From NCBI GenBank assembly GCA_034717495.1, contig JAYELL010000001.1:66649-130648 (forward strand): a DNA stretch of 64,000 nucleotides, given 5' to 3'. Positions 16,476 through 63,622 of the stretch are shown here, one piece after another (the stretch's first letter is position 1; each line of letters opens with the position of its first letter). Source of the DNA: Chloroflexota bacterium (GTDB lineage Bacteria > Chloroflexota > Anaerolineae > JAAEKA01). The position numbers and the translations under genes are program-made. A model generated the notes under the pieces. It was not told the DNA's origin, did no database searches, and saw nothing but the letters and a program-made list of their open reading frames with translations.

Positions 16476-16527
16476 TGTCAATATGTCAGCATGTCAAAAT
16501 GACACAATGACATTCTGGAGAAAACCT
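16476..16527 (+). repeat. short GACA/TGTC octamer-type element upstream of the DHS-SIS gene
   Basis: gatgtcaatatgtcagcatgtcaaaatgacacaatgacattctggagaaaacct ATG. It shares the gacat(t)ccgacatgctgaca core seen at 8.26, 11.67, 11.89, 30.0 and 56.70 kb. Confidence 0.45.
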
Positions 16528-29957: not shown

Positions 29958-30314
29958 CGTTTCCTCCAGTCGAGAATAGATATCCTGTCAGCTGCCTATG
30001 GCAGCATGTCGGAATGTCAAAATGCCAGAACGGGAACAGGAGTTTTCGTAGGTCCGGCTACCAGCCGGACGATCTGGTGTACCAGAGATGTCACGCTGAT
30101 AGCGATGACCTACAAAACTCGCGTTCGCAAATTGGCTTCAGTTTTTTTCACCGGTTCACCGTGTCCTCGTATCGCCGTGTCGGACAAGGGCTTGGATTCC
30201 GATGGGGCCGAACTGACGCCAGACGCGCAGACTTCCGGTCCCGCCAGGAGATCGGAAGTCTGATTGAACGATGGCTTTCAGGCCGGAATCCGATCGGCCT
30301 GCCGGTCTTCGGGA

Positions 30315-48901: not shown

Positions 48902-49918
48902 TCAAAGATCGTCTCGCACCAGAATCCCTTTCTGAACCATGCCCGGGTTTTCCGTCATGGCTTTGAAGACCTGGGGTGCGTCCCAGAGGTTGAACTCGGT
49001 CGCCACGCGGGGATAGGTGATTGCCCCCGCCGCCATCAGCTCCAATGCCTCCGGAAAACAGTCTACCGACGCCCGGGATCCAAGGATGGTCATCTCCTTG
49101 CGGGTGAAATCGAGGGCGGGCAGGCTGACGGTTGTCCCCTGTTTAACCAGGCCAAGGATCACGATTCGCCCACCGGCGGCTACCAGGTCGACGGTTTGTT
49201 CCATGACCCGGGGGCTACCGGTGGCTTCAATCACCACAGGGAAACCCTCGCCGTCGGTTCGGTCCAGCACAGTTTCCAGCAAGTTGGCGTCAGCCAGAAC
49301 TGTATCCGCACCAAATTCGGCGGCAGTCCTCAGGCGTTCGGGCACGATATCTGTCGCCAGGACCCTGGCGCCGCGGGCCCGGGCCACCTCGATCACGGAC
49401 AGGCCGATAGGCCCTGTACCCAGCACCAGCACATTCTCGCTACCCACGCCGCCGCGACGACAGGCCTGCACGCCGATGGCGACCGGCTCGGCAAAGGAGG
49501 CTTCGGACAACGACAGGCCAGGTGGCACCGGATGTATCAGTTCAACCGGCGCTGTCAGATACTCGGCATATCCGCCTGGAAGATGGGCTCCGATGATGCG
49601 TAGATTGGCACAGCAATTGGACTTGCCGATGCGGCAGGGATAGCACTCGCCGCAGCCGATGAAGGGTTCGACGACCACCTGCGTTCCTGGAATCAACTCC
49701 TCGACACGGTTGCCAACCTCAACTGCTTGTCCAGCGATTTCATGTCCACAGATCATGGGGTAGATGACGTAGGGGTTTTTGCCCGTGTACGCGTAGAGAT
49801 CGCCAGCACAGATTCCTGCTGCCCCGACCTCGACCAGGACCTCTCGGGGTCCAGGAACAGGTTTTTCCCAGCTGCCGATCATTGAGTCGAAAGGGCCATT
49901 GATGATGAAAGCGCGCAT
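48902..49918 (-). CDS. zinc-dependent medium-chain alcohol/polyol dehydrogenase
   Basis: GICAGDLY..GHEIAG zinc ligands; CGECYPCRIGKSNCC structural Zn site; GTGPIG NAD motif. Confidence 0.8.
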   Translation of the reverse strand: MRAFIINGPFDSMIGSWEKPVPGPREVLVEVGAAGICAGDLYAYTGKNPYVIYPMICGHEIAGQAVEVGNRVEELIPGTQVVVEPFIGCGECYPCRIGKSNCCANLRIIGAHLPGGYAEYLTAPVELIHPVPPGLSLSEASFAEPVAIGVQACRRGGVGSENVLVLGTGPIGLSVIEVARARGARVLATDIVPERLRTAAEFGADTVLADANLLETVLDRTDGEGFPVVIEATGSPRVMEQTVDLVAAGGRIVILGLVKQGTTVSLPALDFTRKEMTILGSRASVDCFPEALELMAAGAITYPRVATEFNLWDAPQVFKAMTENPGMVQKGILVRDDL

Positions 49919-49985: not shown

Positions 49986-51035
49986 CTAAGAGCTCCCTAC
50001 TCCGTACTCATCCAAACTGACAACCTGGTTCCGCGCCGCCGACTCGTAGGCGGCATACACCAATTGCATCGTTTTCAGATTGTCCTCGCCAGTGTTTTCG
50101 GGCGGTTCACCCGAGCGAAACGCCCGCAGGAAATCCTGGTGAATCGGCACCATGCTGGCGTGGTTCACATCGTAAGCAGGGTCGGCCCAGGCATAGTGGG
50201 GGGGAGGAATGCGCCAGACCCGGGTGCCACCGTCCCTGGTCAGATGGATCCAGAAATCTGCCTTCAATTCCACGGTTCCCAATTCTCCCTCGATGAAAAT
50301 GATTTCTTCGGGAAAGTGCTCCCAGGCGACCTTGCTGACGAAACTCATGTCCACGCTACAGATGATGTCACCCATTCGCAGCAGGGCCGAAGCTACATCC
50401 TCTGCCAGGATATCATCCCGCACCCGGGAATGCTGGCAGTAGATGCTCTGGGCCTCGCCGAAAAAGAAGCGCGCCAGGTCGAACTGGTGGCTGCCCTGAT
50501 CGGCCACGATCAAACGAGGCAGTGTCTTGAGCAATGGCTGATTATCCCAGACGAAAGGCGCCAGGGCATGAAGGAATTGAAACCTGCCCCGGAACGGCTT
50601 GCCGATCTGGCCCTCGTCGATGACCCGTTTGACCTCGCGAATGGGGTGTTGCCAGCGATAGTTTTCGTGTACAAACAAGGAAACACCTGCATCTCTGCAG
50701 ACGGCCACCATCTGCTGTGCAGTCTGGTAGTCAGGTGCCATCGGTTTTTGGCAGATAACCGGCACCCCATACTGGGCTGCCAGTTCCACCAGGGCAGCAT
50801 GGGCTGCCACTTCGGTGATGATATCGACAAAATCCAGCTGCTCCTGTTGGAACAGGGTTTCGGCATCCCGGTAGACCTGTGGCACGCCAAACTTTTCGGC
50901 CACCGCCAGCGCTCTGCTGTGGGTTCGATTCCAGACCGCGACCAACTCCACACCACCGACCTCAAACCAGGCCGGGATCTGGTAGTGTGACCAGAAACCG
51001 GTGCCAAGCACCGCAAACCTCAACTTATCGGACAT
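49986..51035 (-). CDS. Gfo/Idh/MocA family oxidoreductase
   Basis: LRFAVLGTGFWSHYQ Rossmann N-terminus; CQKPMA motif; start at the internal Met (MSDKLRF). Confidence 0.8.
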   Translation of the reverse strand: MSDKLRFAVLGTGFWSHYQIPAWFEVGGVELVAVWNRTHSRALAVAEKFGVPQVYRDAETLFQQEQLDFVDIITEVAAHAALVELAAQYGVPVICQKPMAPDYQTAQQMVAVCRDAGVSLFVHENYRWQHPIREVKRVIDEGQIGKPFRGRFQFLHALAPFVWDNQPLLKTLPRLIVADQGSHQFDLARFFFGEAQSIYCQHSRVRDDILAEDVASALLRMGDIICSVDMSFVSKVAWEHFPEEIIFIEGELGTVELKADFWIHLTRDGGTRVWRIPPPHYAWADPAYDVNHASMVPIHQDFLRAFRSGEPPENTGEDNLKTMQLVYAAYESAARNQVVSLDEYGVGSS

Positions 51036-51206
51036 GACAACAGCTCCTCTGTCCAGCAATGCGTTTACAGAACATGCATTTCCTTGTCTACTGTTCTCAA
51101 AGTGGCGCTCTACCTCACGGATCGGCTAGCTAGCTCACGCACCGTCTGCTGACGTCACGCACCGCTTGCTGCCTCTCGGCACGCCTGCTGGCGTAGCGTG
51201 CTGCCG

Positions 51207-51322
51207 TGGCCGGTCTTTGCGAAGCACCCCGCAGCGCCAGCGAAGTGGGCCCGACCGTGCCAGCCTGCATTTTCATCGTTGCTGGTGCGCCAACGTTCAT
51301 GTTGACTTGTCTACTTGTTTCC
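51207..51322. repeat. left copy of a 116-bp near-identical inverted repeat (partner at 62368-62483), followed by cttgtttc/cttatcta octamer repeats to ~51347
   Basis: The reverse complement of 51207-51322 equals 62368-62483 with 2 mismatches (catgaacgttggcgcacc vs catgatcgttggcacacc). Confidence 0.8.
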
Positions 51323-51356
51323 TTATCTACTTATCTACTTGTTTCCTTGTCCCCCC

Positions 51357-52388
51357 TCACAACTCAAACAGAACCTTCATCGTCTCACTCGACCGGACCA
51401 GTTCAAATCCACGCTCATATTCCTCCAGTGGCAAGACATGGCTGATGAGCGGCTTCAGATTGATCATTCCTGCCTCCACCAGCTGTACCATGCGCCGCCA
51501 GGTCTCCCACGTGCGGCCCATGGTGCCAAATAGCTTGATCTCGCGGCGGGTCAAGGCGAAGAAGGGATTGATTGACACCGGTGCATCGAAGGTGCCGATC
51601 GTGACCACAGTACCGGCATTGCGAACCAGAGCCAGGGCCTGTTCCAGTCCCGATTGTGTGGCTGCTGCTTCGATTACGAAGTCAGCGCCCCGCCCATCGG
51701 TCATCGCCTGAACCCTGGCGACGGGATCCTCCCGGCTGGCATCGACCACGGTGCCAGCACCGATCGTTGTGGCCAGCTCGAGACGGGGCGCTGACAGATC
51801 GGTCAGGATCACGGTGGCGCCATAGGCTGCCAGCGTCTGGCCTGCCAGGATTCCAATGGGTCCACAGCCGACCACTACGGCGGTGTCGCCTGGATCGTGG
51901 GGCTCGACTTCGACCGCGTGGACGGCGATACCCAGGTTCTCCAGCAGCGCACCCTCGGCCATCCCCAGGCTGTCGGGCATTCTGCAGAGCGACCCCTCGG
52001 GAAGCACCCCGTATTCGGCGAAGGCTCCCCGTTGTTTGCCGTAGATTTCCCGTTCCAAACACATGTTGGTGGCACCTTTGCGGCAGAGAAAACAATGGCC
52101 GCAATGGATCAGTGGATCGACTACGATGCGGTCGCCCGGTTGGAAGCGCTTGACGGCATTGCCAACCTCGGCCACAACACCCGATACCTCGTGGCCCAGT
52201 ACTGTGGGCAGCTTCAATGTCGAATCGTTGGCGGCCCACTCGTTCCAATCGTAGACCTTGACCTCGCCCACGCAGATGGCGCAGTACGCGACCTTGAACA
52301 GAACGTCGTTGGGATGTTCGATGCCGGGCCTTGGAAGGTCTCGCAGCCAAAGCCCGGGCCCCGGCCGCTCTTTCACGAGGGCCTTCAT
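51357..52388 (-). CDS. zinc-dependent medium-chain dehydrogenase (threonine/sorbitol-DH-like)
   Basis: CAICVGEV..GHEVSG; CGHCFLCRKGATNMC; GCGPIG. Confidence 0.8.
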   Translation of the reverse strand: MKALVKERPGPGLWLRDLPRPGIEHPNDVLFKVAYCAICVGEVKVYDWNEWAANDSTLKLPTVLGHEVSGVVAEVGNAVKRFQPGDRIVVDPLIHCGHCFLCRKGATNMCLEREIYGKQRGAFAEYGVLPEGSLCRMPDSLGMAEGALLENLGIAVHAVEVEPHDPGDTAVVVGCGPIGILAGQTLAAYGATVILTDLSAPRLELATTIGAGTVVDASREDPVARVQAMTDGRGADFVIEAAATQSGLEQALALVRNAGTVVTIGTFDAPVSINPFFALTRREIKLFGTMGRTWETWRRMVQLVEAGMINLKPLISHVLPLEEYERGFELVRSSETMKVLFEL

Positions 52389-52389
52389 G

Positions 52390-53142
52390 TCAGCATCCCT
52401 CCCTGTCTACGACTGGCGCGGCCAGCTGGGCGTATCGCTCCGTATTTTTTCGCATCTGCTCAAGATTGTCGCGCATGGCCTGCCGGGCTCCCTCGGCATC
52501 ACGTGCTTCGATTCGTTCGAGCAGCCGTCTGTGATGGGGGATGTTGTCTTTCCAGGGATCGAGAAAGACCGTCACCAATGCAATGTATTCGTACAGGAGG
52601 TCGCGGATGGAGTCCATCAGGACGATCAAGAGAGGATTGTGGGTCATTGCTGCGATTGCCCTGTGGAACTCGGTGTCGTGGACCGCCAGCAGTTCGACGT
52701 CGGCCTGAGCCGCTTCCATGCTTTCGAAGATTGCCCTGAGGTGGGCTAATTCTCCGTCGGTGGCCTGGCAGGCGGCAAGGCCACCAGTCTCTACCTCCAG
52801 TATCGACCGCACCTGGTGAAGGTCGTGAAAGGAAATCGTTCCGCTTCCGTGGGCTCGCAAGTAGAGACCCAGGGGCTCCATCACCTGTTGGCTGGTCAGC
52901 TGCCGGACCTGGGTACCGACGCCGTGTTGTGTTTCCAATAAGCCCTTGGCTACAAGGATGCCCACCGCCTCACGCACGACGGTACGGCTGACGCCGAGTT
53001 GTTCGGCAAGTTCCCTTTCCGGGGGCAGTCGCGTTTCCGGTGCCAGGTCACCCTGGACGATCAGCCCTTCGATTTCCAGGACTACCTGGTCAACCAGGTT
53101 TTCTTTTGTTCCGACTGCCCGAAACGGGCTGCCTGGGTTCAT
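52390..53142 (-). CDS. GntR-family transcriptional regulator (FadR/FCD subfamily)
   Basis: N-terminal wHTH (LPPERELAEQLGVSRTVVREAVGILVAKGLLE) with a C-terminal all-helical FCD-type domain. Confidence 0.8.
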   Translation of the reverse strand: MNPGSPFRAVGTKENLVDQVVLEIEGLIVQGDLAPETRLPPERELAEQLGVSRTVVREAVGILVAKGLLETQHGVGTQVRQLTSQQVMEPLGLYLRAHGSGTISFHDLHQVRSILEVETGGLAACQATDGELAHLRAIFESMEAAQADVELLAVHDTEFHRAIAAMTHNPLLIVLMDSIRDLLYEYIALVTVFLDPWKDNIPHHRRLLERIEARDAEGARQAMRDNLEQMRKNTERYAQLAAPVVDREGC

Positions 53143-53173
53143 GGAGTCTCTCCCGAAGCTGTGGTCTTGGACA

Positions 53174-53950
53174 TCAGCCGATCCTTTGCGCCATCAGAGG
53201 CATGTACAGGCTTTGAGCGCCATCGACGCTGACAACCTGACCGCTAACGTGCCCTGCGTCTTCTGAGGCAAAATAAGCGACCAGATGGGCATGGTCGCTT
53301 GGATCTGCCATCTTGCCGGCTGGGATGAGGGCCGTCATGGCGTCCAGATCGAGGTTGCGGTCGACCGCCGATTCTGCGAGCATCTCTGTCCAGGTCATTC
53401 CCGGGCAGACGGCGTTGACGGTAATCCCGTGAGGTGCCATTTCTACTGCCAGGCAACGGGTGAAGTGATTGACAGCAGCCTTGGCGGAACAATAGCCGAT
53501 CTGCTTTTCGCGGGCGATGATTCCGGCAATAGACGATATGTTTACGATTCTCCCGCCGGATCGGGGTATCATGCGCCGGATGGCAGCCTGTGAACAGAGG
53601 AATACCCCCTTGGCGTCCACATCGAAGCAGGTGTCCCAGTCGGCTTCGCTCATATCCGCGGTAGGTCCGGTGCGCAGGGCGCCTGCGTTGTTGACAAGCA
53701 GCCACAGGGGACCCAGCCGATCTTCAGTTTGTGCCACCATGCGCTCGACAGCGGTTTTTTGGCTGACGTCGGCGCGGATGGCGATGGACTGATAGCCTGC
53801 GGTCTGGAGGGTTTCGGCGGTCTGCTCGACCTCCCTGGAGCGTGCGGCCACTGCCACGGCCATGCCCTTCGAGGCAAGCACCCGGGCGATCTCGCGGCCA
53901 ATCCCTTTGCTGGCACCTGTTACCAACGCTACCTTGCCTTGCAGATCCAT
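53174..53950 (-). CDS. SDR-family oxidoreductase
   Basis: TGASKGIG Gly motif, NNAG, YxxxK (YCSAKAA). Confidence 0.85.
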   Translation of the reverse strand: MDLQGKVALVTGASKGIGREIARVLASKGMAVAVAARSREVEQTAETLQTAGYQSIAIRADVSQKTAVERMVAQTEDRLGPLWLLVNNAGALRTGPTADMSEADWDTCFDVDAKGVFLCSQAAIRRMIPRSGGRIVNISSIAGIIAREKQIGYCSAKAAVNHFTRCLAVEMAPHGITVNAVCPGMTWTEMLAESAVDRNLDLDAMTALIPAGKMADPSDHAHLVAYFASEDAGHVSGQVVSVDGAQSLYMPLMAQRIG

Positions 53951-53973
53951 AATAATTCACCTCCACCGGTGCC

Positions 53974-54735
53974 TCACATTGCAGTCATGCCACCATCCAC
54001 CACGTAGAAACCGCCAGTGCAAAAACTGGACTCGTCGGAGGCGAGGAACACCGCCAGACCCACCACATCTTCGGGCTGGCCGATTCGGCCCATGGGAATG
54101 GCTTCGGCCAGGCGTTGCGGGACCCCCTCGTCCTCGAGCACGGCGGAGATCATCGGCGTTTCGGTGGTGCCGGGACAAAGAGAGTTGACCCGAATGTTGT
54201 CGCGGGCATAATCTATGGCCATGATCCGTGTCAGCCCGATCACGCCACCTTTGCTGGCGCTGTAAGCGGTGTACCCTGGAGCGCAGGCGCGATAGCCGGT
54301 CGGAGACCCGACGAGGATGATGGACCCTCCGCCTTGCTGAAGCATAAACGGGATAACGGCCTTGGCGCAAAGCCATGAACCCTTCAGATTCACGGCAACC
54401 GTGCGGTCCCAAATATCCTCGGACAGCTCGTGGGCCCGACTATCGGCGCGCATAAACTGGATACCGGCATTGTTGTAGAGAATATCGACCCTGCCGAATC
54501 GTTGAATGGCCACGTCAACCATGGCCTGCACACCGGCGAATTGCGTGACATCGGTCATGATGAAGGTGGCTACGCCGCCGGCATCCTGGATGATCGAAGC
54601 TGTCTCGCGGCAGAGGTTCCGCTTGATGTCAGCAAGCACCAGTCTGGCGCCCTCTTTCGCATAGCCAGTGGCTACAGCTCGACCCATTCCTGCGCCTGCG
54701 CCAGTAACGATGGCTACTTTATCCTTCAATCTCAT
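53974..54735 (-). CDS. SDR-family oxidoreductase
   Basis: TGAGAGMG, NNAG, YSASKGG; RBS gaggag before the chosen Met. Confidence 0.85.
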   Translation of the reverse strand: MRLKDKVAIVTGAGAGMGRAVATGYAKEGARLVLADIKRNLCRETASIIQDAGGVATFIMTDVTQFAGVQAMVDVAIQRFGRVDILYNNAGIQFMRADSRAHELSEDIWDRTVAVNLKGSWLCAKAVIPFMLQQGGGSIILVGSPTGYRACAPGYTAYSASKGGVIGLTRIMAIDYARDNIRVNSLCPGTTETPMISAVLEDEGVPQRLAEAIPMGRIGQPEDVVGLAVFLASDESSFCTGGFYVVDGGMTAM

Positions 54736-54811
54736 GGTGGACTCCTCTTCATTTTCCACGCCATTGACGCCAACTATCCATTCTTAGTAACCCATCGATC
54801 GAACACTTTGT

Positions 54812-55612
54812 TTACGCGTCAATGTCGCGTAGCCACGATCCACCAGCTTCAAAACCACCGTCGATGATGATGTTTTGGCCGGTGATGTAGGAGGAGGCGT
54901 TGGAGGCGAGCAGCAACGTGACACCAACCAAATCCGATGGGTTCCCCGGGCGCCGTGCAGGAATCCGCTGTCGGAACCAGCGTGCTTTTTCCTCATCTTG
55001 CCAGAGCGGCCGGGAGAGGGGAGTCAGCATGAAACCAGGCGAGATGCAGTTGATCTGGATGTTATCCGGTGCCCATTCCACCGCCATCGCCTTGGTCAGC
55101 TGAGCCATTCCTCCCTTGCTGGCGCCATAGACGGAAACAGTGTCAAGGGCAAAGGTAATGTTGATCGACCCGACATGGATAATCTTGCCGCCACCCTGAG
55201 AGCGCATGATCGCGTGGGCAGCCTGGCTCAGGAAGAAGACGCTACGCAGATTGACCGCCGTGATGATCTCCCAGTCCTCCTCGGTGACTTCGGAAATTGG
55301 CTTGCGGCGATTGGTAGCCGCGCAGTTGATCAGGATATCGAGGCGGCCGGTGGCTGCGACCAGGTCGTCCACGAGATGGCGGCAAGCATCGACATCGGCC
55401 ACGTCCGCGACCAGTGGCACGGCCTTTTGACCGGCTTGCTCGACCATGTCGCAGGCGATTCGCACCCGTCCGAGATCGCGGCCGTGTACGCCGACGGTTG
55501 CGCCTGCATCAGCCAATGCCCCTGCCAGCACTTGTCCGATACCGCCTGAGGCGCCGGTGAGCAGGGCTGTCTTGCCGCCCAAAGAAAAAAGTCTCTCAAC
55601 AAACGAGCTCAT
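54812..55612 (-). CDS. SDR-family oxidoreductase
   Basis: TGASGGIG, NCAA, YGASKGG. Confidence 0.85.
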   Translation of the reverse strand: MSSFVERLFSLGGKTALLTGASGGIGQVLAGALADAGATVGVHGRDLGRVRIACDMVEQAGQKAVPLVADVADVDACRHLVDDLVAATGRLDILINCAATNRRKPISEVTEEDWEIITAVNLRSVFFLSQAAHAIMRSQGGGKIIHVGSINITFALDTVSVYGASKGGMAQLTKAMAVEWAPDNIQINCISPGFMLTPLSRPLWQDEEKARWFRQRIPARRPGNPSDLVGVTLLLASNASSYITGQNIIIDGGFEAGGSWLRDIDA

Positions 55613-55718
55613 GATTTCCGTTTCCTTGCCTGCTGATTATTGCCTGGAACCCGATCCGGATTGTTCGGCCAACCTTGTTTCTACGGGCAGCACATCAATC
55701 CGGAATCAGCGGTACCAT

Positions 55719-56681
55719 CTAGACCACCCGGTACAGCGGTTCGTCGCCACGCAGCGCCCGCAGGCAGTTTTCCAGGCACATTTTCCCTTGCTTGCGCTGG
55801 GCGTCGACGGTACGGCCGCCCAGGTGAGCGGTGAGCACGACGTTATTGAGGTCGAGCAGGGGACTGTCGACCGGGGGTTCCGTGACAAAGGCGTCCAGGC
55901 CGGCTCCTGCAATCTGACCTTCCTGAAGAGCAGTGACCAGCGCCTCTTCGTCCACCAGCGCGCCGCGGGCGGTATTGACCAGTATTGCCGTTGGTTTCAT
56001 CATGTCCAGCTCGCTGGCTCCAATCAGTGGCCCATCGATCATTTCGACTGCCGCGTGCAGCGACACAACGTCGGCTTGAGCGATCAGCTCGGCAAGAGAC
56101 GCGAAAGTAACCCCATTTTCGGCCGCCCATGCAGAATCCGGGTAAGGGTCGAAGGCCAGAACGGTCATGCCAAAGGATCGTGCCCGCAAGCAGACTTGCT
56201 TGCCGATTCGTCCCAGCCCGACGACTCCCATTTTTTTGTCCTGCAATTCCATGCCATAGACTGCCTGCCAACCACCCTGGCAAACATCGTTGTGGCTGCG
56301 CACCACACCACGTGCCACAGCCAGCAACAGGGCCATGGTCAGGTCTGCTACCGAGTGATGGTTGGTGCCCGGCGTGGCGGAAACGACAATGCCTCGGGCC
56401 TGGGCTGCATCCAGATCGATGGTCTCCAATCCTACGCCATGTTTGGCAATCGTGCGTAAACTCACGGCCGCGTCGATCACCTCGGCCGTGAGTTCATCGG
56501 TGCCGGTGATGATGGCGTCCATGCCGGGCAGAATCTCAAGCAATTCCTCGGCCCGGTAGGCTCGTCCGACGCTGTTAGGGATGACCTCGCAGCCAGCTTG
56601 TTTGAGTTGTGTGATATGCTCGGGAATTCGTTTTCCAAAGGAACGAGAGCCGATCAGCACTCGCCATTTTCTTTCGGTCAT
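55719..56681 (-). CDS. D-isomer-specific 2-hydroxyacid dehydrogenase family protein
   Basis: GVVGLGRIGKQV NAD motif; catalytic region RGALVDEEAL..; substrate-binding N- and C-lobes; RBS aaagga. Confidence 0.8.
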   Translation of the reverse strand: MTERKWRVLIGSRSFGKRIPEHITQLKQAGCEVIPNSVGRAYRAEELLEILPGMDAIITGTDELTAEVIDAAVSLRTIAKHGVGLETIDLDAAQARGIVVSATPGTNHHSVADLTMALLLAVARGVVRSHNDVCQGGWQAVYGMELQDKKMGVVGLGRIGKQVCLRARSFGMTVLAFDPYPDSAWAAENGVTFASLAELIAQADVVSLHAAVEMIDGPLIGASELDMMKPTAILVNTARGALVDEEALVTALQEGQIAGAGLDAFVTEPPVDSPLLDLNNVVLTAHLGGRTVDAQRKQGKMCLENCLRALRGDEPLYRVV

Positions 56682-56689
56682 CCGTTGTC

Positions 56690-56975
56690 CTTTCGTTATG
56701 TCGGAATGTCATCATGCCATCATGTCATTGCGCTGTCACCGCGTCACCGTGTCTTCCTTTCGCCGTGTCTCCCTATCTCTACGTCTCCGTGTCTCCCTAT
56801 CGCCGCGTCCCCGTGTCGCCCTATCGCCGTGTCACCGCGTCTCCCTATCTCTACGTCTCCGTGTCTCCCTATCGCCGCGTCCCCGTGTCTCCCTATCGCC
56901 GCGTCACCGCGTCTCCCTATCGCCGCGTCACCGCGTCTCCCTATCGCCGCGTCACCGCGTTTGTCTCAAGAATCG
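56690..56975 (-). repeat. long 8-bp-phased repeat array (24-bp super-period, about 33 octamers) upstream of the minus-strand dehydrogenase operon
   Basis: On the top strand (cgccgcgt caccgcgt ctccctat)n. In gene sense this reads gacgcggtgacgcggcgatagggagac..., the same family as 11684-11923. It ends in gacattccgacat 15 nt before the ATG at 56681. Confidence 0.6.
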
Positions 56976-56982
56976 TTCAACC

Positions 56983-57648
56983 TCACCGCTGCTCCTCTAT
57001 CAGATTCCGCATCTCCACCACCTCGGCTGCCATGTCAGGCACACGGTAGATGCCACCACCAAAGGCGATGGATGTGGCGCCGGCTGCCAGGAGATCAGGA
57101 AGATGTTGGCGCTTGACGCTGCCAGCAATCTGAATGTCGAACGCCACGCCGGCGCTATCGGCCAGAGAGCGAGCCGTGCTTAGCCGTGGCAGAACCAGGG
57201 GATTGAACACAGCCCCTCGGCTCCCCTCGCCCGTCACCCGGGAAAGCAGAAGGATGGCATCCACCAGGGTGATTACGGGCTCCAGCAAGGCCAGCGGCGT
57301 TCCCAGCGTGAAGGCCAGGCCCACGGTCACGCCCAGCTCGCGCACGAAGAAGAGATCCTCGTAGGGCATGGTCGAACTCTCCACATGGAAGAGTATCAGA
57401 TCTGCGCCTGCGTCGGCCAGTTGCGGCGCCACATGGCGTACATTAGTCACGCCCAGATGTACCTCAAAGGGTAACGCCGTCAGCGGTCGCAAGGCAGCAA
57501 TGGTGCGGGGTGAAAAACCCAGGTCGGCGACAAAATGACCGTCGAAGACGTCGTGATGGATGAAATCGAGCCCGGCCGCTTCCAGCCGTGCGATCTCATC
57601 AGCCAATCGCCCGTGATCGCCATTGAAGAGAGCCGCACCCAGCCGCAT
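56983..57648 (-). CDS. ribulose-phosphate 3-epimerase family protein (canonical metal site)
   Basis: FIHHDVFDGHFVADLGF (HxDxxDGHFV) and EVHLGV present; about 220 aa from the internal Met (MRLGAALF). Confidence 0.7.
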   Translation of the reverse strand: MRLGAALFNGDHGRLADEIARLEAAGLDFIHHDVFDGHFVADLGFSPRTIAALRPLTALPFEVHLGVTNVRHVAPQLADAGADLILFHVESSTMPYEDLFFVRELGVTVGLAFTLGTPLALLEPVITLVDAILLLSRVTGEGSRGAVFNPLVLPRLSTARSLADSAGVAFDIQIAGSVKRQHLPDLLAAGATSIAFGGGIYRVPDMAAEVVEMRNLIEEQR

Positions 57649-57728
57649 GCCAGTGCCATTTTTGAATTGCTGCTCCATAGGTAAATCCTCGATTTTGCCA
57701 CTCCAAAAAAGCCTGAATGTGTCAGGTC

Positions 57729-58391
57729 CTAAGCCTCCGGCTCAATGGCTATGGCGCGCACCGGACACGAGTCGAGGCCTACGACCGGCCATGGCAGAGC
57801 GATCAGGAAGATCCGCTGCTGCTGCAATTCGGTCAGGTTGGTCAGGCATTCGATGATAGGTACGCCGGCGTTCATGGTCAGGCGGTGGTTGGGATGATGG
57901 CTGACACCGCGTACCTCGAAACCGGAACTATCGGTGCCCAGGCAGTTGATTTTTCGATTCTCCACCAGCCATCGTACCGCCTCTTCGGTGATATAAGGAC
58001 GATCGTGGGAGGTTGGCGTTCGATACTGGGTGTGGCGACCCGTCATAGTCAACACGCGGTCTCCAACCTGGATATTGCCGGCGTCCTGCATTTCCTCCAG
58101 CGTGATTGCTTCGTTGACGCCCTTGTGGCGGAAATCCAGGACGATGGCCGGGCCCATCAGGTTTTCAATGGTGAGACTGGCAGTGTCGCCGCCATCTTCG
58201 ACAAAGTGCAGGGGTGCTTCCACATGCGTCCCGACATGGGACCACATGTACACAGTCTTCATGATATCGCCTTCGGAACCCTTGCGTTGATCGCGCTGGG
58301 AAATCTCCAGCGTATATTGTTCTTTGAAGGGATGCAGAACGTGGGTAAGATCTACGATCCTGCCTGTCGGAATGCTGACCTGGTTGAACAT
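57729..58391 (-). CDS. cyclase-family protein (kynurenine-formamidase-like fold)
   Basis: SHVGTHVEAPLHF matches the cyclase HxGTHxDAPxH motif; 220 aa. Confidence 0.7.
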   Translation of the reverse strand: MFNQVSIPTGRIVDLTHVLHPFKEQYTLEISQRDQRKGSEGDIMKTVYMWSHVGTHVEAPLHFVEDGGDTASLTIENLMGPAIVLDFRHKGVNEAITLEEMQDAGNIQVGDRVLTMTGRHTQYRTPTSHDRPYITEEAVRWLVENRKINCLGTDSSGFEVRGVSHHPNHRLTMNAGVPIIECLTNLTELQQQRIFLIALPWPVVGLDSCPVRAIAIEPEA

Positions 58392-58464
58392 CTGTGGTAT
58401 GTGCTCCTTTTGCTACTGTCGGTCCGGGCAAAACTTCAGCCCGGCCTCGTCTGATTCACTGAAG

Positions 58465-59511
58465 TTACGCAGGCTGTTGCCGGTCGCCTGACCGACCAGA
58501 CTCAACTCTGATACCCGGCGCACCAGTGGTGACCGGAAGACCCCGCCCGCCGGCTTCGTTGATGGCCGCTACGACGCCGGCCTGGTCGTCCGGTGCAGCC
58601 AGCGCGATGATAATGCCTCCGCCGCCGGCGCCGGATATCTTGGCGCCCAGTGCTCCCGCGCCGATCGCCGCCTCGATGAGAGCGTCGTTTTCGGGGGCCG
58701 ATGTTCCGATTTTGTCCTGGATCAGTTGGTGGAGATTGAATAAATGGCCAAGGCTGAAAAGGTCGTGATTGCTCAACTCCTTTTCGATCTGGTTTGACAA
58801 CCAGCCCATGTCGCCAAAAAGATGCATCTTGGCAGGATGGGCTTCCAGATATTTTCGTACGATGGTGTTGAGTTTGGCGGTGCTGCGATCCTCGACGAAG
58901 GCCTGGCCCACCACCAGTGGCAAGGCCTTCTGTATGGCCAGGGGCTGCGCCCCATCTTCTACTGTGTAGCGGACCAGACCGCCCAACGCGATAGTGCTGC
59001 TGTCCAGACTGGAGGCGATACCTCCGTGGGCAATGATATCGCCCTGCCAGGCCACAAAGATTACATCGTCCGGAGTTGGCTGGTAGCCAGCCAGATGGAA
59101 GGCTGCCAGCGCCATAGCAGTGGAGGCTGCGGCGCCGGACCCGAGGCCTGAACTGATAGGGACATCGGAAAACCATTCGATGTCCAGGCCCGGACCACCG
59201 ACCTGCTCGATCACGTGGGCCAGCACGTAGCGGGTAGGTGCAAAAAAGTCCCTGGCCATCTCCCGTATCGCGTCCAACTGCCCGGTCTCCCGTAACCTGT
59301 CCACGTCAGCTTTGAAGGCGAAAAGACGATCCCGGGAACAGGTTTCGAAGCGTTCTCCCGATCGCAAGGTGAAATGTTGATCCGAGCGAGTCTTTGCCCG
59401 ACAGGTCGTACGCATGTCGACGGCGGTGCAGAGTGCCGGCTGCCGGCGGTTTACCCCATGATCGCCGCAGAGGATGATCTTGGCGGGCGCTGATGTGACG
59501 ATGCTTGTCAT
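58465..59511 (-). CDS. GHMP-family kinase
   Basis: N-terminal APAKIILCGDH; motif 2 PISSGLGSGAAAS; C-terminal GAKISGAGGGG. Confidence 0.75.
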   Translation of the reverse strand: MTSIVTSAPAKIILCGDHGVNRRQPALCTAVDMRTTCRAKTRSDQHFTLRSGERFETCSRDRLFAFKADVDRLRETGQLDAIREMARDFFAPTRYVLAHVIEQVGGPGLDIEWFSDVPISSGLGSGAAASTAMALAAFHLAGYQPTPDDVIFVAWQGDIIAHGGIASSLDSSTIALGGLVRYTVEDGAQPLAIQKALPLVVGQAFVEDRSTAKLNTIVRKYLEAHPAKMHLFGDMGWLSNQIEKELSNHDLFSLGHLFNLHQLIQDKIGTSAPENDALIEAAIGAGALGAKISGAGGGGIIIALAAPDDQAGVVAAINEAGGRGLPVTTGAPGIRVESGRSGDRQQPA

Positions 59512-59515
59512 GATC

Positions 59516-61612
59516 TCATTTTTCGATGGAATCGATCCGGGCGATGGCGTAAGGTCGGAGATTCAGAGTCAACGTGCCCGCAGAGGTTTCGGTGACTTCT
59601 CCGTCGCTCAGGCGGAAGGTTTCAGGGAATCGCATCGCCTCCTCGCCATTGGTTTCATCCAGGACTCTGACGTCGACCCTCCCGGGTAATCCGGAGGTGG
59701 CTACCTGCTGCATTTCATTGCTCAGGTTGGCGACCAGCACCCTGACCCTGTTGCCATAGCGCATTGCAAGTGAATCCACAAGAAGAGGGTTGCGGGATTC
59801 CGTCGGGATTACCTCTCCGCCGGCGAACTCGCCTACATCAGCCAATACGTGATACACAGGAAATACGGAGCCGGGGATCGATTGAAAATACTCTGGAAGA
59901 GGCGAACCCGCTTGTGTCTCCATTACCCCTCGCCACCCGACAGTCTCGAAGTAGGTCGTGCTCAGAGCGCCGGCCTCCGCGAGGAATTTCAGGCTGCCCA
60001 GGGTCCAGCCTGCGCCAAAGAGGGACATCTGTCGCTCATCCACTTCGGCAGGCAGTTGGCCGGTGGGCCTCTGCTCTTCCGGTTCGCTGGCATAGGGATT
60101 GAAGCGCATCTTTAGTGTCACTGGTGTAACAGCAATGGGCAGGTTGCCTGTGATCTGTTGAGCACTTTTGACCGTAGCTGCCTGGGCTGCCAATGTCTCC
60201 ATCAGGGAAGAATTGTCGAAGGCGTGGACCTGTGGATTGACCGAATAACAGGCCAAATCAGATGCTTGCATTTGTGGACGCACCTGGTTCAGCTGGGTGA
60301 AGAACTGGTTGGTTCCCGCGCCGAAGCGGGCTGTCGGATCATAAGTTGCCAGTCGGTCACGAGCCAATCCGACCCATCTGTTCGACGTGGCAGCCTCATC
60401 ATCATGGAAGATGAGCCAGGCCCAGACGGGCGGCTTCAAATTCTGGAGGATCCGTGCAAATTCCGTAAGTTCTTTCTGAGCGTTGTTGGAGAGAAAGAGG
60501 GCAATCTCCAGTGCTACATCGAGTTGCCTGGCTTCTGCAATGGCCTGCCGTAACTTGGATTGGTAACCCGAATGTGAAAGCCTTACTCCTACCCGAAGAT
60601 GGGCAAGGTTGAGAGCCGCTAAACGCTCCAGTTCATTTTCTGTCAGAGGCATTCCGTGGCTTGCGATTCCCAGCCCGACCCGCGGCAGACGCCTGCCGGC
60701 GTCTTTGCCAAGCGAGATCGTCACGGCAGACTGCCCGGCGGACTGAGCCTGCAGCGGAACATTGCCCTCCAGGGCCAGTGATATCCTTTGAAAAATCCTG
60801 GTGCCCTTGGAGACTTCGACCGGGAAGGGCAAGCGAAGGGGCGTACTATATGTCTTGAAGGAGGCGTCGGTCCAATTGCGCTGATCCTCCATCTCGAAGA
60901 TATCACCCTCAAACCGTAGCCCGGCCCACAGATTCGCTTGGACCTGGTGCTTCACGGCTCTCATTTCCTCGAATGGGTGAAGCGGTTTCACCTGGCCGTC
61001 GACAATCAGTTGGGGGGCGATGGACATCGGAAAAGCGCTGTCGTCTGTGGTGCCATCAACGTGTTCTATCTGGCAAAGGGCGCCGGCGCACCTCATCGGA
61101 TGCAGAACGCAGAAGCCGATCCGGCTGCGAAGAAATGTGGAATGGGCCTGTCCATCCATGCTGAAGGTGATCGTGCCATCCGGCGCGCCCGTGATCACTC
61201 CATGCCAGCGGAAGTCGATGCCGCCCTCCCGGTTGTGGGCGTCGTAGGTGATCTGGAAGCGGTCGCCATCGATTTCGAGGCGTTCGTTGGTCAGCACCGG
61301 TGCGACCGTGCCCCAGTTTTTGTCTCGCACGGCGACATACACCCTGCGCAGGATCTCCTGGTCACCCAGCCGCACGTAGCGCAGATCGCCGGCTTGATAG
61401 ATTAGGGCCAGGGGGCCGGCGCGCAATGAAACCTTCTCGGGAAGAGAATCCTGGGCACCGTAGCGAAGCACATTTCGAGGGAGGCGCATAGGGCATGGCT
61501 CCAAACTGTGGAGATCGGCAGCTGATGTGGTAGGAGGTATGACCACTTCCACTATATCATATCGCGAGCTCTTTGTCCAGGTCAGATTGATGTCGCCGTC
61601 GATGCGGCTCAT
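59516..61612 (-). CDS. large hypothetical protein (up to 698 aa) heading an operon with the GHMP kinase, cyclase and RPE genes
   Basis: Long ORF with coding-like composition; 4-nt gap to the GHMP kinase gene. No family recognised. The start is ambiguous: Met at 61612, or an internal Met at 61489 with ggag 9 nt upstream. Confidence 0.45.
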   Translation of the reverse strand: MSRIDGDINLTWTKSSRYDIVEVVIPPTTSAADLHSLEPCPMRLPRNVLRYGAQDSLPEKVSLRAGPLALIYQAGDLRYVRLGDQEILRRVYVAVRDKNWGTVAPVLTNERLEIDGDRFQITYDAHNREGGIDFRWHGVITGAPDGTITFSMDGQAHSTFLRSRIGFCVLHPMRCAGALCQIEHVDGTTDDSAFPMSIAPQLIVDGQVKPLHPFEEMRAVKHQVQANLWAGLRFEGDIFEMEDQRNWTDASFKTYSTPLRLPFPVEVSKGTRIFQRISLALEGNVPLQAQSAGQSAVTISLGKDAGRRLPRVGLGIASHGMPLTENELERLAALNLAHLRVGVRLSHSGYQSKLRQAIAEARQLDVALEIALFLSNNAQKELTEFARILQNLKPPVWAWLIFHDDEAATSNRWVGLARDRLATYDPTARFGAGTNQFFTQLNQVRPQMQASDLACYSVNPQVHAFDNSSLMETLAAQAATVKSAQQITGNLPIAVTPVTLKMRFNPYASEPEEQRPTGQLPAEVDERQMSLFGAGWTLGSLKFLAEAGALSTTYFETVGWRGVMETQAGSPLPEYFQSIPGSVFPVYHVLADVGEFAGGEVIPTESRNPLLVDSLAMRYGNRVRVLVANLSNEMQQVATSGLPGRVDVRVLDETNGEEAMRFPETFRLSDGEVTETSAGTLTLNLRPYAIARIDSIEK

Positions 61613-61803
61613 TGCTCATACGGAGTTGGTCGCCAAAACCGGATTCGCTTCATGTCTCTGGCTGCTATTCCATTGATCATCCTTCGGTGTGGTATAATTT
61701 GTGGCGTTCCGAATCCATCCAACCTCCCCTAACCGGCGAGGGCAGTTTTCCACTACCCTCTCGGAGGAGCAAGCGCAGCAACTCAAGGATGCCCTCAAGG
61801 AAA

Positions 61804-62352
61804 ATGAGTGAGCCCTCTGATCTCAGCCTTTTTCATCGGCTGTTCGACAAATCATATCCTGCTATCCGTTTCTTTTACGAAAGGGTCATGGGTCACGTCT
61901 GGTTCAGCCAGATCACGCCACAGCTCTGGTTGGGTGGCGCGCCCACCTACAAACGTGACTACCAGGTACTGCTGGAGTATGGTATCAGCGCCGTGCTAAA
62001 CGTACGGGCCGAACGGGCCGATGAAACCTTCTTTTATGATCAGCACGACATTACCCACGTGCGCTACCTGGTGCCCGATGTTTCGATACCGGACGAGAAA
62101 ATCCTTAGCGAGGCGGTCGATTGGATCAAATCCCAGGTGGAGGATGATCGGGTTGTTCTGGTTCACTGCGCGAAAGGCCGGGGTCGGTCTGCGACCCTGC
62201 TGGCCGCCTATCTGATGCGTGAAGAGGGCATGACCTTCGACCAGGCCAATGAGCTGTTGAAGACCAAACGCTCCCTGACCAAGTTGCAGTCGCGACATCG
62301 CCAGGTTTTAGAGGGATGGATGGAGACGCAGCAGCAAGGGGGAAGTAAATAA
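61804..62352 (+). CDS. dual-specificity / Cys-based protein phosphatase
   Basis: Catalytic P-loop VHCAKGRGRSAT (HCx5R(S/T)). 182 aa from the Met preceded by aaggaaa. Confidence 0.7.
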   Translation: MSEPSDLSLFHRLFDKSYPAIRFFYERVMGHVWFSQITPQLWLGGAPTYKRDYQVLLEYGISAVLNVRAERADETFFYDQHDITHVRYLVPDVSIPDEKILSEAVDWIKSQVEDDRVVLVHCAKGRGRSATLLAAYLMREEGMTFDQANELLKTKRSLTKLQSRHRQVLEGWMETQQQGGSK

Positions 62353-62367
62353 GTAGAGAAGTAAACA

Positions 62368-62483
62368 AGGAAACAAGTAGACAAGTCAACATGATCGTTG
62401 GCACACCAGCAACGATGAAAATGCAGGCTGGCACGGTCGGGCCCACTTCGCTGGCGCTGCGGGGTGCTTCGCAAAGACCGGCC
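62368..62483. repeat. right copy of the 116-bp inverted repeat (partner at 51207-51322), flanked by gtaaacaa/ggaaacaa and gggaagta/gtaagtat octamer repeats
   Basis: See the left copy. In sense orientation relative to the downstream squalene-synthase-like gene (start 62537), as the left copy is relative to the Gfo gene (start 51035). Confidence 0.8.
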
Positions 62484-62536
62484 AGAGCGGCTATTCACAG
62501 TACAGTGGGAAGTAAACAAGAGGTAAGTATGCAAGT

Positions 62537-63622
62537 ATGAGTGAGGACTTTGTGATTCTGGAACAAGAGCGGTTGTATCTGCAATCCTCTATGAACGGCG
62601 TGTCTCGTTCCTTCGCCATCGTGGTGCCAAATCTTGAACCACCGCTTGATGACTATTTTGCCACCGCCTATCTTATCTGCCGGGTTGTCGATAACATCGA
62701 AGACTGCACCCACCCGTTTTACTGGCAGCAGCAGCGTTTTAGCGAATTCCACCAACTGCTTTCCCATCCTGAATCGGCCCGAGAGATCCTGGCTGTCTGG
62801 GATCAGGAATCCTGGCCAGGCTTGACGATCGAAGAGGTGGCCATGATGGGAACGCAGTACGGTGCGCCACTGTGGAAGATCTACGCGGCCATACCCGAAA
62901 GCGAAAGAGCGTCGATAGCCAAATGGGCTGGGACGATGGCAGATGGCATGTGTCGCGTTGAAGATCCTGATTTGGTGCCTCGGCTGATCGACCATGATGG
63001 TGTGTCGATGCTGGCCGACGCAGAGGACTATAATGGTTACTGCTATTATGTTGCCGGGACGGTCGGGCAAATGGCCACGGAACTGGCGATCTCCCATTAC
63101 CAGTTTCCAGATGACGTTGCGACCCTGCTTTTCGATAACGCCGAGGCCTGTGGACGCAGTCTGCAAAAGACCAATATCGTCAAGGATTTCGTCAAGGATC
63201 TGGAACGGGGTGTTTCCTACCTTCCCGATCAATGGCTACGACAGACCGGCTATAGCCCATTACGCCTGGCGGGAGCCCCGGTGGCGTGGAAGTATCAGGT
63301 GCTTGACGATGTCATGCAAGAGCTTCGCGACGCCACCCGTTATCTCGTTTCACTGCCATACAGCGCTTCCGGATATCGTATGGCCGCGCTGCTATGTCTG
63401 CTTCCAGCCTACCAAACACTTTTGCTGGCAGCGAAAAGGCAGGACAAACTGTTTACGGAGAAACATCAGATCAAGATTTCTCGCACGACCATGGCAAAAT
63501 GCAAGTGGGATGCCAAATCCATGATTGCCGATAATGAGGCTGTTCGACGTTACAGCCAGCGGATGGAGACGGCGGTTGCCGCTGCCTTTGGCGCAGCCGT
63601 TCCTGCCCCTGGGCGTCTGTAA
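62537..63622 (+). CDS. squalene/phytoene synthase family protein
   Basis: YCYYVAGTVG motif (canonical YCYxVAGTVG) and first Asp-rich region VVDNIEDC; 361 aa. Confidence 0.8.
   Translation: MSEDFVILEQERLYLQSSMNGVSRSFAIVVPNLEPPLDDYFATAYLICRVVDNIEDCTHPFYWQQQRFSEFHQLLSHPESAREILAVWDQESWPGLTIEEVAMMGTQYGAPLWKIYAAIPESERASIAKWAGTMADGMCRVEDPDLVPRLIDHDGVSMLADAEDYNGYCYYVAGTVGQMATELAISHYQFPDDVATLLFDNAEACGRSLQKTNIVKDFVKDLERGVSYLPDQWLRQTGYSPLRLAGAPVAWKYQVLDDVMQELRDATRYLVSLPYSASGYRMAALLCLLPAYQTLLLAAKRQDKLFTEKHQIKISRTTMAKCKWDAKSMIADNEAVRRYSQRMETAVAAAFGAAVPAPGRL

Follow-up and report, generated by a model that had tools for sequence, protein, structure and literature searches.

Near-identical inverted repeats around an 11-kb interval in an uncultured Chloroflexota genome: probable copies of an intercistronic spacer module

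Introduction

In the genome of an uncultured member of the Chloroflexota, two near-identical sequences face each other in inverted orientation at a distance of 11 kb, on either side of a run of sugar-acid and redox genes. This raises the question of whether the two arms delimit a unit, e.g., a mobile or invertible segment, or whether each of them belongs to the spacer between genes in which it sits. An earlier note on this DNA had proposed a duplicated promoter or structured 5' leader, the ends of a transposase-less mobile or invertible segment, or a substrate for inversion by recombination. Here we examine these proposals, along with others that the locus suggests, in a 64-kb window (the whole stretch of DNA that was analysed), in terms of repeat structure, gene setting, folding and comparison with related genomes.

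Results

An inverted-repeat search of the window placed the arms at 51200..51353 (the left copy, minus strand) and 62338..62491 (the right copy, plus strand), 154 nt that are 92% complementary, and blastn aligned the same pair over 149 nt at 94%. Alignment of the two, with a check of register and mismatches, gave a core of 118 nt in which 51207..51324 (minus strand) pairs with 62367..62484 (plus strand) with two mismatches, at 51288 and 51296; 81 nt are identical between the copies (51207-51287 and 62404-62484). The near-perfect inverted pair is thus confirmed, as is its left start at 51207, while the right arm had been given as 62368-62483 and is one base off, 51207 being paired with 62484. 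A 69-mer from the core has two exact matches in the window compared with 0 expected (100 shuffles), and a covariance model of the core, run with filters off, found no further diverged copies in the 64 kb.

The gene names that had been proposed for this region all agreed with Pfam. On the minus strand, ten co-directional genes (51357..61612), assigned from Pfam and NCBIfam matches and from the contexts of their homologs, encode a lactonase-like protein (698 aa), a GHMP kinase, a cyclase, an RPE-like protein, a 2-HADH, three SDRs, a GntR/FCD regulator and a ZnADH. As judged from these homologies, the genes are a D-apionate-lactonase-type sugar-acid catabolic operon, which runs on into a Gfo/Idh/MocA oxidoreductase (Gfo, MEA3334354.1; 49986..51035, minus strand) and then ZnADH2 (48902-49918, minus strand). 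Gfo, which lies downstream of the left copy, was identified by Pfam, a 100% match to P0121 and synteny, and is a member of the conserved operon. On the plus strand, a dual-specificity phosphatase (DSP; 61789..62352, with an approximate start at ATG 61789 or 61804) is co-directional with a gene of the squalene/phytoene-synthase family (SQS-like, MEA3334366.1; 62537..63622) downstream of the right copy. The 11-kb interval had been described as one gene block; its genes are not all co-oriented, given the DSP, for which both the HCxxGxxR motif in the plus frame and the Pfam DSPc match indicate the plus strand. Divergence of the two gene strings at ~61.6 kb is the sole reason why the copies face in opposite directions.

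Read in the sense of each string, the layout of the two sites is alike, i.e., ZnADH, module, Gfo on the minus strand and DSP, module, SQS-like gene on the plus strand. On the left, homology between the copies begins immediately after the ZnADH TGA (0 nt); on the right, it begins 15 nt ahead of the DSP TAA. The left copy takes up the 5' portion of the ZnADH-Gfo spacer, which is 321 nt long (51036-51356), and the right copy, with the DSP C-terminus read from the sequence, starts in the last five codons of DSP (stop 62350-62352) and leaves 45 nt up to the SQS-like ATG. From the core to the next ATG there are 171 nt on the left (Gfo ATG 51035) compared with 52 nt on the right (SQS ATG 62537). Each copy does sit upstream of an outward-facing gene in the same sense, as had been described. 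What fixes the position of the module is the upstream stop and not the downstream start. The NCBI accessions from Gfo (...354) to SQS (...366) are consecutive with 11 genes between them, therefore nothing is annotated in the spacers.

Four relatives (L062, L084, L085 and L087) carry ZnADH-Gfo-(SDR)-ZnADH2 contiguously in a single operon of the D-apionate-lactonase type, with ZnADH-Gfo spacers of 12 nt (L084), 9 nt (L085), 71 nt (L087) and ~100 nt (L062) compared with 321 nt here. Neither blastn nor the covariance model matched the core to any of these four spacers, the model found no homolog of it in 720 kb of related loci, and it was not found upstream of Gfo orthologs (76-78% identical) or SQS orthologs (61-65%). 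Because the four relatives keep ZnADH and Gfo adjacent without the core, the left copy is, on this comparative evidence, a lineage-specific insertion inside the operon and no block boundary. Exact scans with words from the core returned 0 matches in genome contigs (48-mer), metagenome contigs (24-mer) and viral contigs (19-mer). The one match of a 21-mer in metagenome contigs fell in AT-rich coding sequence with no likeness beyond the word itself and was rejected. Recent duplication or conversion, which the earlier note had deduced from near-identity, is supported by the absence of the core from the orthologous spacer of the four relatives and from the collections searched. The L062 spacer has only ~10 nt (GGTGCGTGAG, and GTGAAAC after the stop) in common with that of the window, which is too little to tell the direction of duplication.

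Spacers elsewhere in this genome are also rich in repeats. The RPE-HADH spacer of the same operon is a 301-nt octamer array here compared with 10 nt in L084, further dispersed spacer repeats occur in the same 64 kb, where several repeat families fill the spacers, and spacers of the relatives hold 7-nt versions of tandem arrays. The left spacer also contains a 10-nt direct repeat of the octamer family, AGTAGACAAG, that encloses ~250 nt; nothing corresponds to it at the right copy. The literature that we consulted held nothing specific on octamer arrays in Chloroflexi.

The source is a metagenome-assembled genome, and a k-mer graph does not fix the orientation of an interval between inverted repeats that are longer than k. 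A repeat-induced misjoin or a duplicated graph node is nevertheless hardly credible as the origin of the pair, given that the copies differ at two core positions and throughout their octamer arrays, that their flanks differ, and that the ZnADH-Gfo junction agrees with the synteny of four independent genomes.

Near-identical inverted ends around accessory-looking catabolic genes have the geometry, and the geometry alone, of a mobile element or genomic islet lacking a transposase, with the arms as its terminal inverted repeats and the 11-kb block as its cargo. Compared with the relatives for such a unit, the window showed synteny running through the left arm, which splits a conserved operon that is syntenic on both sides, and breaking on the right where the lactonase gene starts, which is 0.7 kb inward of the right arm; DSP lies outside the operon in every relative. 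GC content and skew run on through both arms with no compositional step. No transposase, recombinase, invertase, integrase or Y1/HUH transposase was present among the called ORFs scanned in the 64-kb window. The ends of the module (GGGGGGACAAGG... and ...AAAGACCGGCCA) are not complementary as MITE-type terminal inverted repeats would be, nor are the ends of the core, the hairpins of the module all being internal; no direct repeats flank the arms, with no target-site duplication in the flanking bases (TGTGA and CGGCA on the left, AGCAA and GAGCG on the right). The proposed mobile segment is not borne out on these grounds, and we regard its chances as close to negligible.

Two further types of element were considered and rejected. 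In an integron attC site, R'' (RYYYAAC) and R' (GTTRRRY) stand at opposite ends of an imperfect palindrome that is accompanied by an integrase; here AGTCAAC and GTTGGCG are approximate matches only, with 6 nt between them, and both stand at the same end of the core, with no integrase in the scanned ORFs. The motifs likewise misfit a hairpin-ended element of the IS200/IS605 type, for which no TnpA was found, and single-strand transposition is argued against because the copies take opposite orientations on one replichore.

The pair might instead be a working substrate for inversion of the 11 kb, whether through RecA or through a recombinase gene located elsewhere, which would swap the upstream unit (the sugar-acid operon or DSP) that reads into Gfo/ZnADH2 and into SQS/UbiB. 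The copies, 11 kb from each other, share inverted identity that is perfect over 81 nt and 98% over 118 nt, and recombination between them is possible in principle; 81 identical nt exceeds the usual length for homologous recombination and is enough for RecA. Inversion would also restore intact gene-spacer-gene junctions, because each copy sits stop-to-start in the same sense. However, the assembled orientation is the ancestral one, as in the four relatives, and inversion would cut Gfo and ZnADH2 off their conserved operon. The arms, at 118-154 nt, are far longer than the 10-30 bp of site-specific inverton repeats, and the ORFs scanned in the window include no recombinase or invertase. A working inversion substrate is accordingly quite unlikely, and the invertible segment of the earlier note finds no support.

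In the sense of transcription, which for the left copy is the minus strand, the module of ~150 nt runs from a G-run through five or six purine-rich octamers of an AAG type to the GC-rich core of 116-118 nt. TRF located the 8-nt tandem repeats at 51305..51351 (minus strand, 5.9 copies; sense units AAGGAAAC, AAGTAGAC and AAGTAGAT) and at 62343..62391 (plus strand, 6.1 copies; AAGTAAAT, AAGTAGAG, AAGTAAAC, AAGGAAAC and AAGTAGAC), the latter array being recovered by the inverted-repeat search as well, and a pattern search found this type of octamer at those two places only within the window. Octamer-phased repeats had been described as flanking both copies; they are present at both, with full arrays on the inner (block) side only. 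The cores are 98% identical between the copies compared with ~83% for the adjoining octamer arrays, a difference that could reflect selection or homogenisation instead of neutrality. In the left spacer only, the core is adjoined by another GC-rich repeat module (51155..51210, minus strand), which blastn aligned to 25632-25687 at 87.5% identity; because this second module abuts the core, the left spacer is a repeat mosaic.

The 3' end of the module is a GC-rich stem-loop of 58 nt (62427..62484, plus strand), whose left equivalent (51207..51262, minus strand) has lost the closing C-G pair and is otherwise the same. It folds at -29.6 kcal/mol with 77% of the ensemble (z -2.2, 6/200 shuffles), and homology between the copies stops at its base. 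Folding of the whole module gave z-scores of -1.1 to +0.3, no better than shuffles. A small hairpin, ATCGTTG-(9 nt)-CAACGAT, has a 7-bp stem in the right copy (62394..62416, plus strand). Its left equivalent (51275-51297) holds both core substitutions, of which one falls in the loop and the other breaks a pair without a compensating change. The hairpin with a 7-8-bp stem that had been noted in the core consequently holds for the right copy, with a stem weakened by substitution in the left one; the GGGCCC palindrome was found in both cores (51247-51252 and 62439-62444).

These structures bear on whether the module is a duplicated cis-regulatory element (promoter, operator or structured 5' leader RNA) by which Gfo and the SQS-like gene would come under common control. 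The same-sense position of both copies upstream of a gene would fit such a role, as would a core kept at 98% identity while the flanking octamers drifted, the presence of the well-defined 58-nt hairpin and of a small palindrome, and a GntR/FCD regulator encoded in the operon. However, a search for sigma-70-like -35/-10 pairs (16-18-nt spacing) gave 0 sites on both strands of 50900-51500 and 62200-62700. The best candidate by eye, TTGACT-N17/18-(A/G)T(C/T)TAC(T), is on the inward strand and without the -11 A. A textbook extended -10, TGGTATAAT, precedes DSP at 61690-61698, which suggests that canonical -10 elements are used here. Rfam 15 returned 0 matches over the window at the gathering score and at E<=10 only a chance miRNA match (E 1.1), and ARAGORN found nothing. 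Between the core and the region upstream of the operon itself there is no common k-mer of at least 9 nt that might serve as a shared operator. The weak folding of the whole element, the uncompensated break in the small hairpin, the absence of the element upstream of Gfo and SQS orthologs and a position set by the upstream stop instead of the downstream start also stand against a promoter or structured leader. We consider these readings weakly disfavoured, and common control through a duplicated regulatory element unlikely.

The core might alternatively encode a small protein or leader peptide. ATG ORFs are present in the sense direction in both copies (56 aa on the left, 51300-51130; 49 aa on the right, 62391-62540), with the first 31 residues in common, and the stop of the right one overlaps the SQS ATG (ATGA), which would permit translational coupling. 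Against this, no Shine-Dalgarno-like sequence precedes the ATG, both substitutions are non-synonymous (N2I and A5T), the C-terminal halves are unrelated between the copies, the NCBI record annotates no such ORF, and the opposite strand is likewise largely open in all three frames, which is expected at ~60% GC. Six-frame peptides of the core had no match at E<=1 among 5.8 billion proteins. A gene remnant was dropped on that result, together with the small protein, to which we give very little credence.

Discussion

Taken together, we favour, at a probability of roughly 0.6, the reading that the arms are two copies of a private non-coding spacer module between co-transcribed genes, acquired recently in this lineage, and that the 11 kb is not a unit. 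The left copy, at least, would have been inserted into a conserved sugar-acid operon, at an intercistronic gap that is normally short. Copying may have been of a copy-paste kind, either by gene conversion or template switching that started in octamer tracts of similar sequence, or by a trans-acting mobiliser; alternatively, with two copies at a distance of 11 kb, the duplication could have been purely local. The module would be transcribed within polycistronic mRNA, where its terminal hairpin, if functional, might act by analogy with REP/BIME elements to shield the 3' end of the upstream cistron and partly uncouple the downstream one. The module could just as well be neutral.

Among known systems, the spacer module most resembles intercistronic repeats of the REP/BIME/BOX type. 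As with REP/BIME, ERIC and the BOX elements of Streptococcus pneumoniae, the module is non-coding, bears hairpins and lies between co-transcribed genes or just past stops; it is modular and mosaic, with its G-run, octamer array and core and a second family abutting the left copy; and it is missing from the orthologous spacers of relatives and expected in polycistronic mRNA. Two hallmarks of REP/BIME are seen here, i.e., a probably transcribed intergenic spacer, both copies running from a stop to a co-directional start, and a stable imperfect palindrome in the form of the 58-nt stem-loop. However, REP/BIME/BOX families comprise tens to hundreds of copies compared with two in 64 kb, the module has no sequence similarity to any described REP/BIME/ERIC/BOX family, and its core is 116 nt of complex sequence compared with a REP/BIME palindrome of ~35 nt. 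Furthermore, no RAYT-type transposase, as found in REP systems, was seen in the scanned ORFs of the window, and the host is an uncultured member of the Chloroflexota, unlike those of the enterobacterial REP/BIME and pneumococcal BOX.

Other comparisons hold in part. MITEs such as Correia/NEMIS in Neisseria are similarly ~150 nt, non-autonomous, intergenic and inserted relative to relatives, but neither copy of the module has terminal inverted repeats or a target-site duplication. Invertons (Hin/Gin/Cin and the invertible promoters of Bacteroides) and IS- or rRNA-mediated inversions also have inverted repeats that bracket a segment, and the repeat is long enough for homologous recombination. 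Compared with invertons, however, the repeats are ~5-10 times longer, there is no recombinase nearby, and the interval is 11 kb with most of a conserved operon instead of a promoter or variable gene end. Short tandemly repeated repetitive (STRR) sequences are intergenic heptamer arrays of heterocystous cyanobacteria. They recall the flanking octamer arrays only, in having a period of 7-8 nt and occupying intergenic spacers at many loci, but the period here is 8 instead of 7, the phylum is another one and the purine-rich strand of the arrays is the sense strand of the downstream gene.

A more ambitious reading would make the module a new lineage-restricted intercistronic control element, copied recently to give the terminal genes of the sugar-acid operon (Gfo/ZnADH2) and the isoprenoid-synthase/UbiB pair a common post-transcriptional handle, with RecA flipping the 11 kb as an operon-rewiring switch that swaps the promoters feeding the downstream genes. 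We regard this combination as very improbable.

With the spacer-module reading, a candidate mobile or invertible island is removed and the pair becomes a by-product of a repeat-rich spacer landscape. This has little direct consequence, and its modest value lies in the spacer context. In this uncultured Chloroflexota lineage, operon gaps that are tight in relatives (9-100 nt) have swollen to ~300 nt, the extra sequence being made up of 8-nt arrays and private hairpin modules. To our knowledge, there are hardly any descriptions of REP/BIME/STRR biology beyond Proteobacteria, Firmicutes and cyanobacteria. If these spacers are transcribed and set the relative expression of cistrons, they would be a Chloroflexota counterpart of that biology.

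Results

Two copies of a module in intercistronic spacers

Two copies of a module of about 150 nt, consisting of a G-run, AAG-type octamers and a near-identical core of 116-118 nt, lie in opposite orientation in the window. A repeat search delimited the arms at 51200-51353 and 62338-62491 (154 nt, 92% complementary, 10,984 nt between them), and blastn aligned 149 nt at 94%. The cores, at 51207-51324 (-) and 62367-62484 (+), have two mismatches, at 51288 and 51296, and are perfectly identical over 81 nt (51207-51287 and 62404-62484), while a 69-mer taken from the core has two exact matches in the window and none in 100 shuffles. The near-perfect inverted repeat pair described in an earlier note on this sequence is therefore confirmed; its right arm was shifted by one base, the correct register pairing 51207 with 62484. 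The GGGCCC and the small hairpin reported in the core are both present, as are 8-nt tandem repeats beside each copy (51305-51351 and 62343-62391, about six units each). These octamers, AAGGAAAC / AAGTAGAC on the sense strand, occur in the window solely at the two module loci, and a covariance model built from both copies and run with filters off detected no diverged further copy anywhere in the 64 kb. Conservation between the copies is 98% in the core versus about 83% in the octamers, which could reflect slippage-driven decay of the array, recent conversion or selection. Recent duplication, also proposed previously, is supported.

Pfam confirmed every gene name assigned earlier. The dual-specificity phosphatase (DSP), listed earlier among the genes of the 11-kb segment, is encoded on the plus strand, with an HCxxGxxR motif in the plus frame of 61612-62352 (DSPc, E 2e-19). 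The minus-strand string runs from a lactonase-like gene of 698 aa (start 61612) through GHMP kinase, cyclase, an RPE-like gene, 2-HADH, three SDRs, GntR/FCD and a Zn-ADH (ZnADH, stop 51357) to the left copy, followed by the Gfo/Idh/MocA oxidoreductase (Gfo, ATG 51035) and a second Zn-ADH (ZnADH2, 48902-49918). On the plus strand, DSP (~61789-62352) is followed by the right copy and a squalene/phytoene-synthase family gene (SQS-like, ATG 62537). The copies are inverted because these strings are transcribed away from each other from 61.6 kb. An NCBI protein of 100% identity exists both for the SQS-like protein (MEA3334366.1) and for Gfo (MEA3334354.1), and the twelve-step gap between the accessions corresponds to the eleven genes called between them, which implies that the spacers contain no annotated feature. 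Their next-best homologs are only 63-64% (SQS) and 76-78% (Gfo) identical, which indicates that no close relative is present in the collections searched, and none above 90% amino-acid identity.

In the sense of transcription, alignment shows that both spacers run from the upstream stop through the G-run, AAG octamers, core and a variable tail to the next start codon. On the left, homology sets in 0 nt past the ZnADH TGA, and on the right inside the five final codons of DSP (..GGG GGA AGT AAA TAA); it ends 171 nt (left) versus 52 nt (right) before the next ATG. The module thus keeps its position relative to the 3' end of the preceding gene and not relative to the 5' end of the following one.

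Comparison with related loci

The string of genes bearing the left copy looks, from its sequence, like a D-apiose/apionate-type catabolic operon. This reading draws on the 698-aa protein (59516-61612, -), previously listed as an unknown, which is D-apionate-lactonase-like, on Gfo homologs of which some are named D-apiose dehydrogenase by JGI, and on an apiosidase gene that adjoins the cluster in the related locus L084. The match of the 698-aa protein to the NCBIfam model for D-apionate lactonase (ApnL) has an E of 1e-96 but falls short of the equivalog cut-off; its homologs carry the Pfam domains Apionate_lact_N/M/C, and the window protein itself had no match in a local Pfam copy.

Gene order is common to four independent genomes (loci L062, L084, L085 and L087) at 54-87% amino-acid identity: lactonase, GHMP, cyclase, RPE, (Gfo2), 2-HADH, SDRs, (GntR), ZnADH, Gfo, (SDR), ZnADH2. 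The ZnADH-Gfo gap measures 321 nt in the window versus ~100 nt in L062, 12 in L084, 9 in L085 and 71 in L087, and neither blastn nor the covariance model found a core in these four gaps. The short core-free gaps show that the left copy was inserted within a conserved operon. On the right-hand side, the core is absent upstream of SQS orthologs, whose upstream neighbours are variable, and the point where synteny breaks is the start of the lactonase gene and not the right arm; in L062 the place of the DSP is taken by a divergent SorC-like regulator.

These comparisons bear on the proposal that the repeats bound a mobile or invertible 11-kb block. Neither GC content (0.57-0.60) nor skew shows a step at either arm, a scan of ~50 window ORFs revealed no transposase, integrase or invertase domain (~10 of these ORFs gave no Pfam hit under the thresholds applied), and the module lacks both terminal inverted repeats and a target-site duplication. 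Taken with the insertion of the left arm in a conserved operon and the off-arm synteny break, this leads us to reject the mobile block and leaves a dedicated inversion system unsupported. The 81 identical inverted nucleotides are nevertheless a plausible RecA substrate. The assembled orientation of the 11-kb interval is the ancestral one, and its inversion would regenerate intact gene-spacer-gene junctions with the upstream units swapped.

Promoter, leader and coding readings

The module had also been put forward as a duplicated promoter or structured leader. Its one conspicuous feature is a GC-rich stem-loop of 58 nt at the 3' end (62427-62484, +; 51207-51262, -), which folds at -29.6 kcal/mol, accounts for 77% of the ensemble and has a z of -2.2, and the homology between the copies ends exactly at the base of this structure. 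Upstream of it, the right copy has the small hairpin intact, whereas in the left copy one of the two substitutions weakens that hairpin. As a whole, the module folded no better than shuffles on either strand (z -1.1 to +0.3), no Rfam family was matched at gathering score (a lone chance match had E 1.1), no sigma-70-like site was found on either strand of either copy, and together these results disfavour a promoter or structured leader. The module contains no tRNA or tmRNA.

An extended -10 element, TGGTATAAT, has two exact occurrences, at 61690-61698 (+) and 2860-2868 (-). The former precedes the start of DSP by ~100 nt, which suggests that canonical -10 elements are in use here, and it is the likely promoter of a DSP-SQS-UbiB unit; DSP and SQS may form one transcription unit. 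The latter is inside an octamer-array spacer upstream of a GH38 gene.

A coding role is unlikely. The single ATG-initiated sense ORF (56 and 49 aa at the two copies) has no ribosome-binding site, its C-termini are unrelated between copies, both inter-copy substitutions are non-synonymous, and six-frame core peptides had no match among 5.8 billion proteins. Exact core words were absent from genome, metagenome and viral collections apart from a single 21-mer that matched an AT-rich gene by chance.

Spacer repeats across the window

Strict 8-nt arrays occupy further spacers, at 2697-2853, 11655-11716, 11764-11902, 21293-21541 and 56706-56960, in addition to those of the module (51300-51354 and 62342-62393). 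Their units are of the types GACACGGN / GACGCGGN / GAGACTCT; purines predominate on the strand that is sense for the downstream gene, and an array often begins directly at the stop codon of the gene before it. No tract of period 6, 7 or 9-12 in the window exceeded the threshold that the 8-nt arrays pass. The arrays resemble the heptamer repeats of cyanobacteria known as STRR, and we found no literature on such octamer arrays in Chloroflexi. The RPE-to-2-HADH gap (56682-56982) is filled by 301 nt of octamer array, in which a higher-order unit of 72 nt recurs at 92% identity, versus 10 nt in L084, and is a second swollen intercistronic spacer in the same operon as ZnADH-Gfo. Corresponding intra-operon spacers of related Chloroflexota loci contain 7-nt (some 8- or 9-nt) arrays (L087 5181-5319 and 9930-10000; L088 1-194; L001, L009, L038, L041), frequently an array and then its own reverse complement, a layout expected to give long imperfect hairpins.

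A 21-nt motif, TGACATTCCGACATGCTGACA, built from three GACA units at 8-nt spacing, is present four times at <=3 mismatches against 0 expected (8264-8284, +; 11665-11685, +; 16484-16504, -; 29999-30019, -), with variants near 11882 and 56700. At least some copies are in spacers upstream of start codons, and the motif could serve as a promoter-proximal element or as a binding site for a regulator. Low-copy intergenic repeat pairs of 86-93% identity were found at 51155-51210 / 25632-25687, 1128-1171 / 25385-25428 and 1042-1122 / 1187-1266, the last containing C6...G6 hairpins. The first is GC-rich (87.5% identical) and directly follows the left core, making the left spacer a mosaic of repeat modules. 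A terminator-like hairpin with a T-run (GGCTGTGCGTAGCCCCCTTTTTGGG) at 11730-11765 separates the pair of octamer arrays in the spacer at 11684-11923, whose order of array, hairpin, array, Shine-Dalgarno and ATG parallels both module-bearing spacers.

Discussion

Given the repeat-rich spacers across the window, we read the module as one more of the lineage's spacer-repeat family, and its best reading is as a private non-coding spacer repeat of this lineage that was copied into two intercistronic gaps. Copying could have proceeded by conversion, or by template switching, that started within octamer tracts resembling each other, which fits because homology fades into mutable octamers on one side and stops sharply at the hairpin on the other; a trans-acting mobiliser elsewhere in the genome would be an alternative route.

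The closest described analogues are the REP/BIME, ERIC and BOX elements. REP-like terminal hairpins on polycistronic mRNA act as barriers to 3'-to-5' decay or as processing sites, uncoupling the downstream cistron. By analogy, the terminal hairpin of the module would serve as such a barrier or site, and the module may equally be neutral. The module is an orphan, previously undescribed intercistronic repeat element from a phylum that has been sampled poorly, and the landscape of octamer arrays around it is more notable than the module itself.
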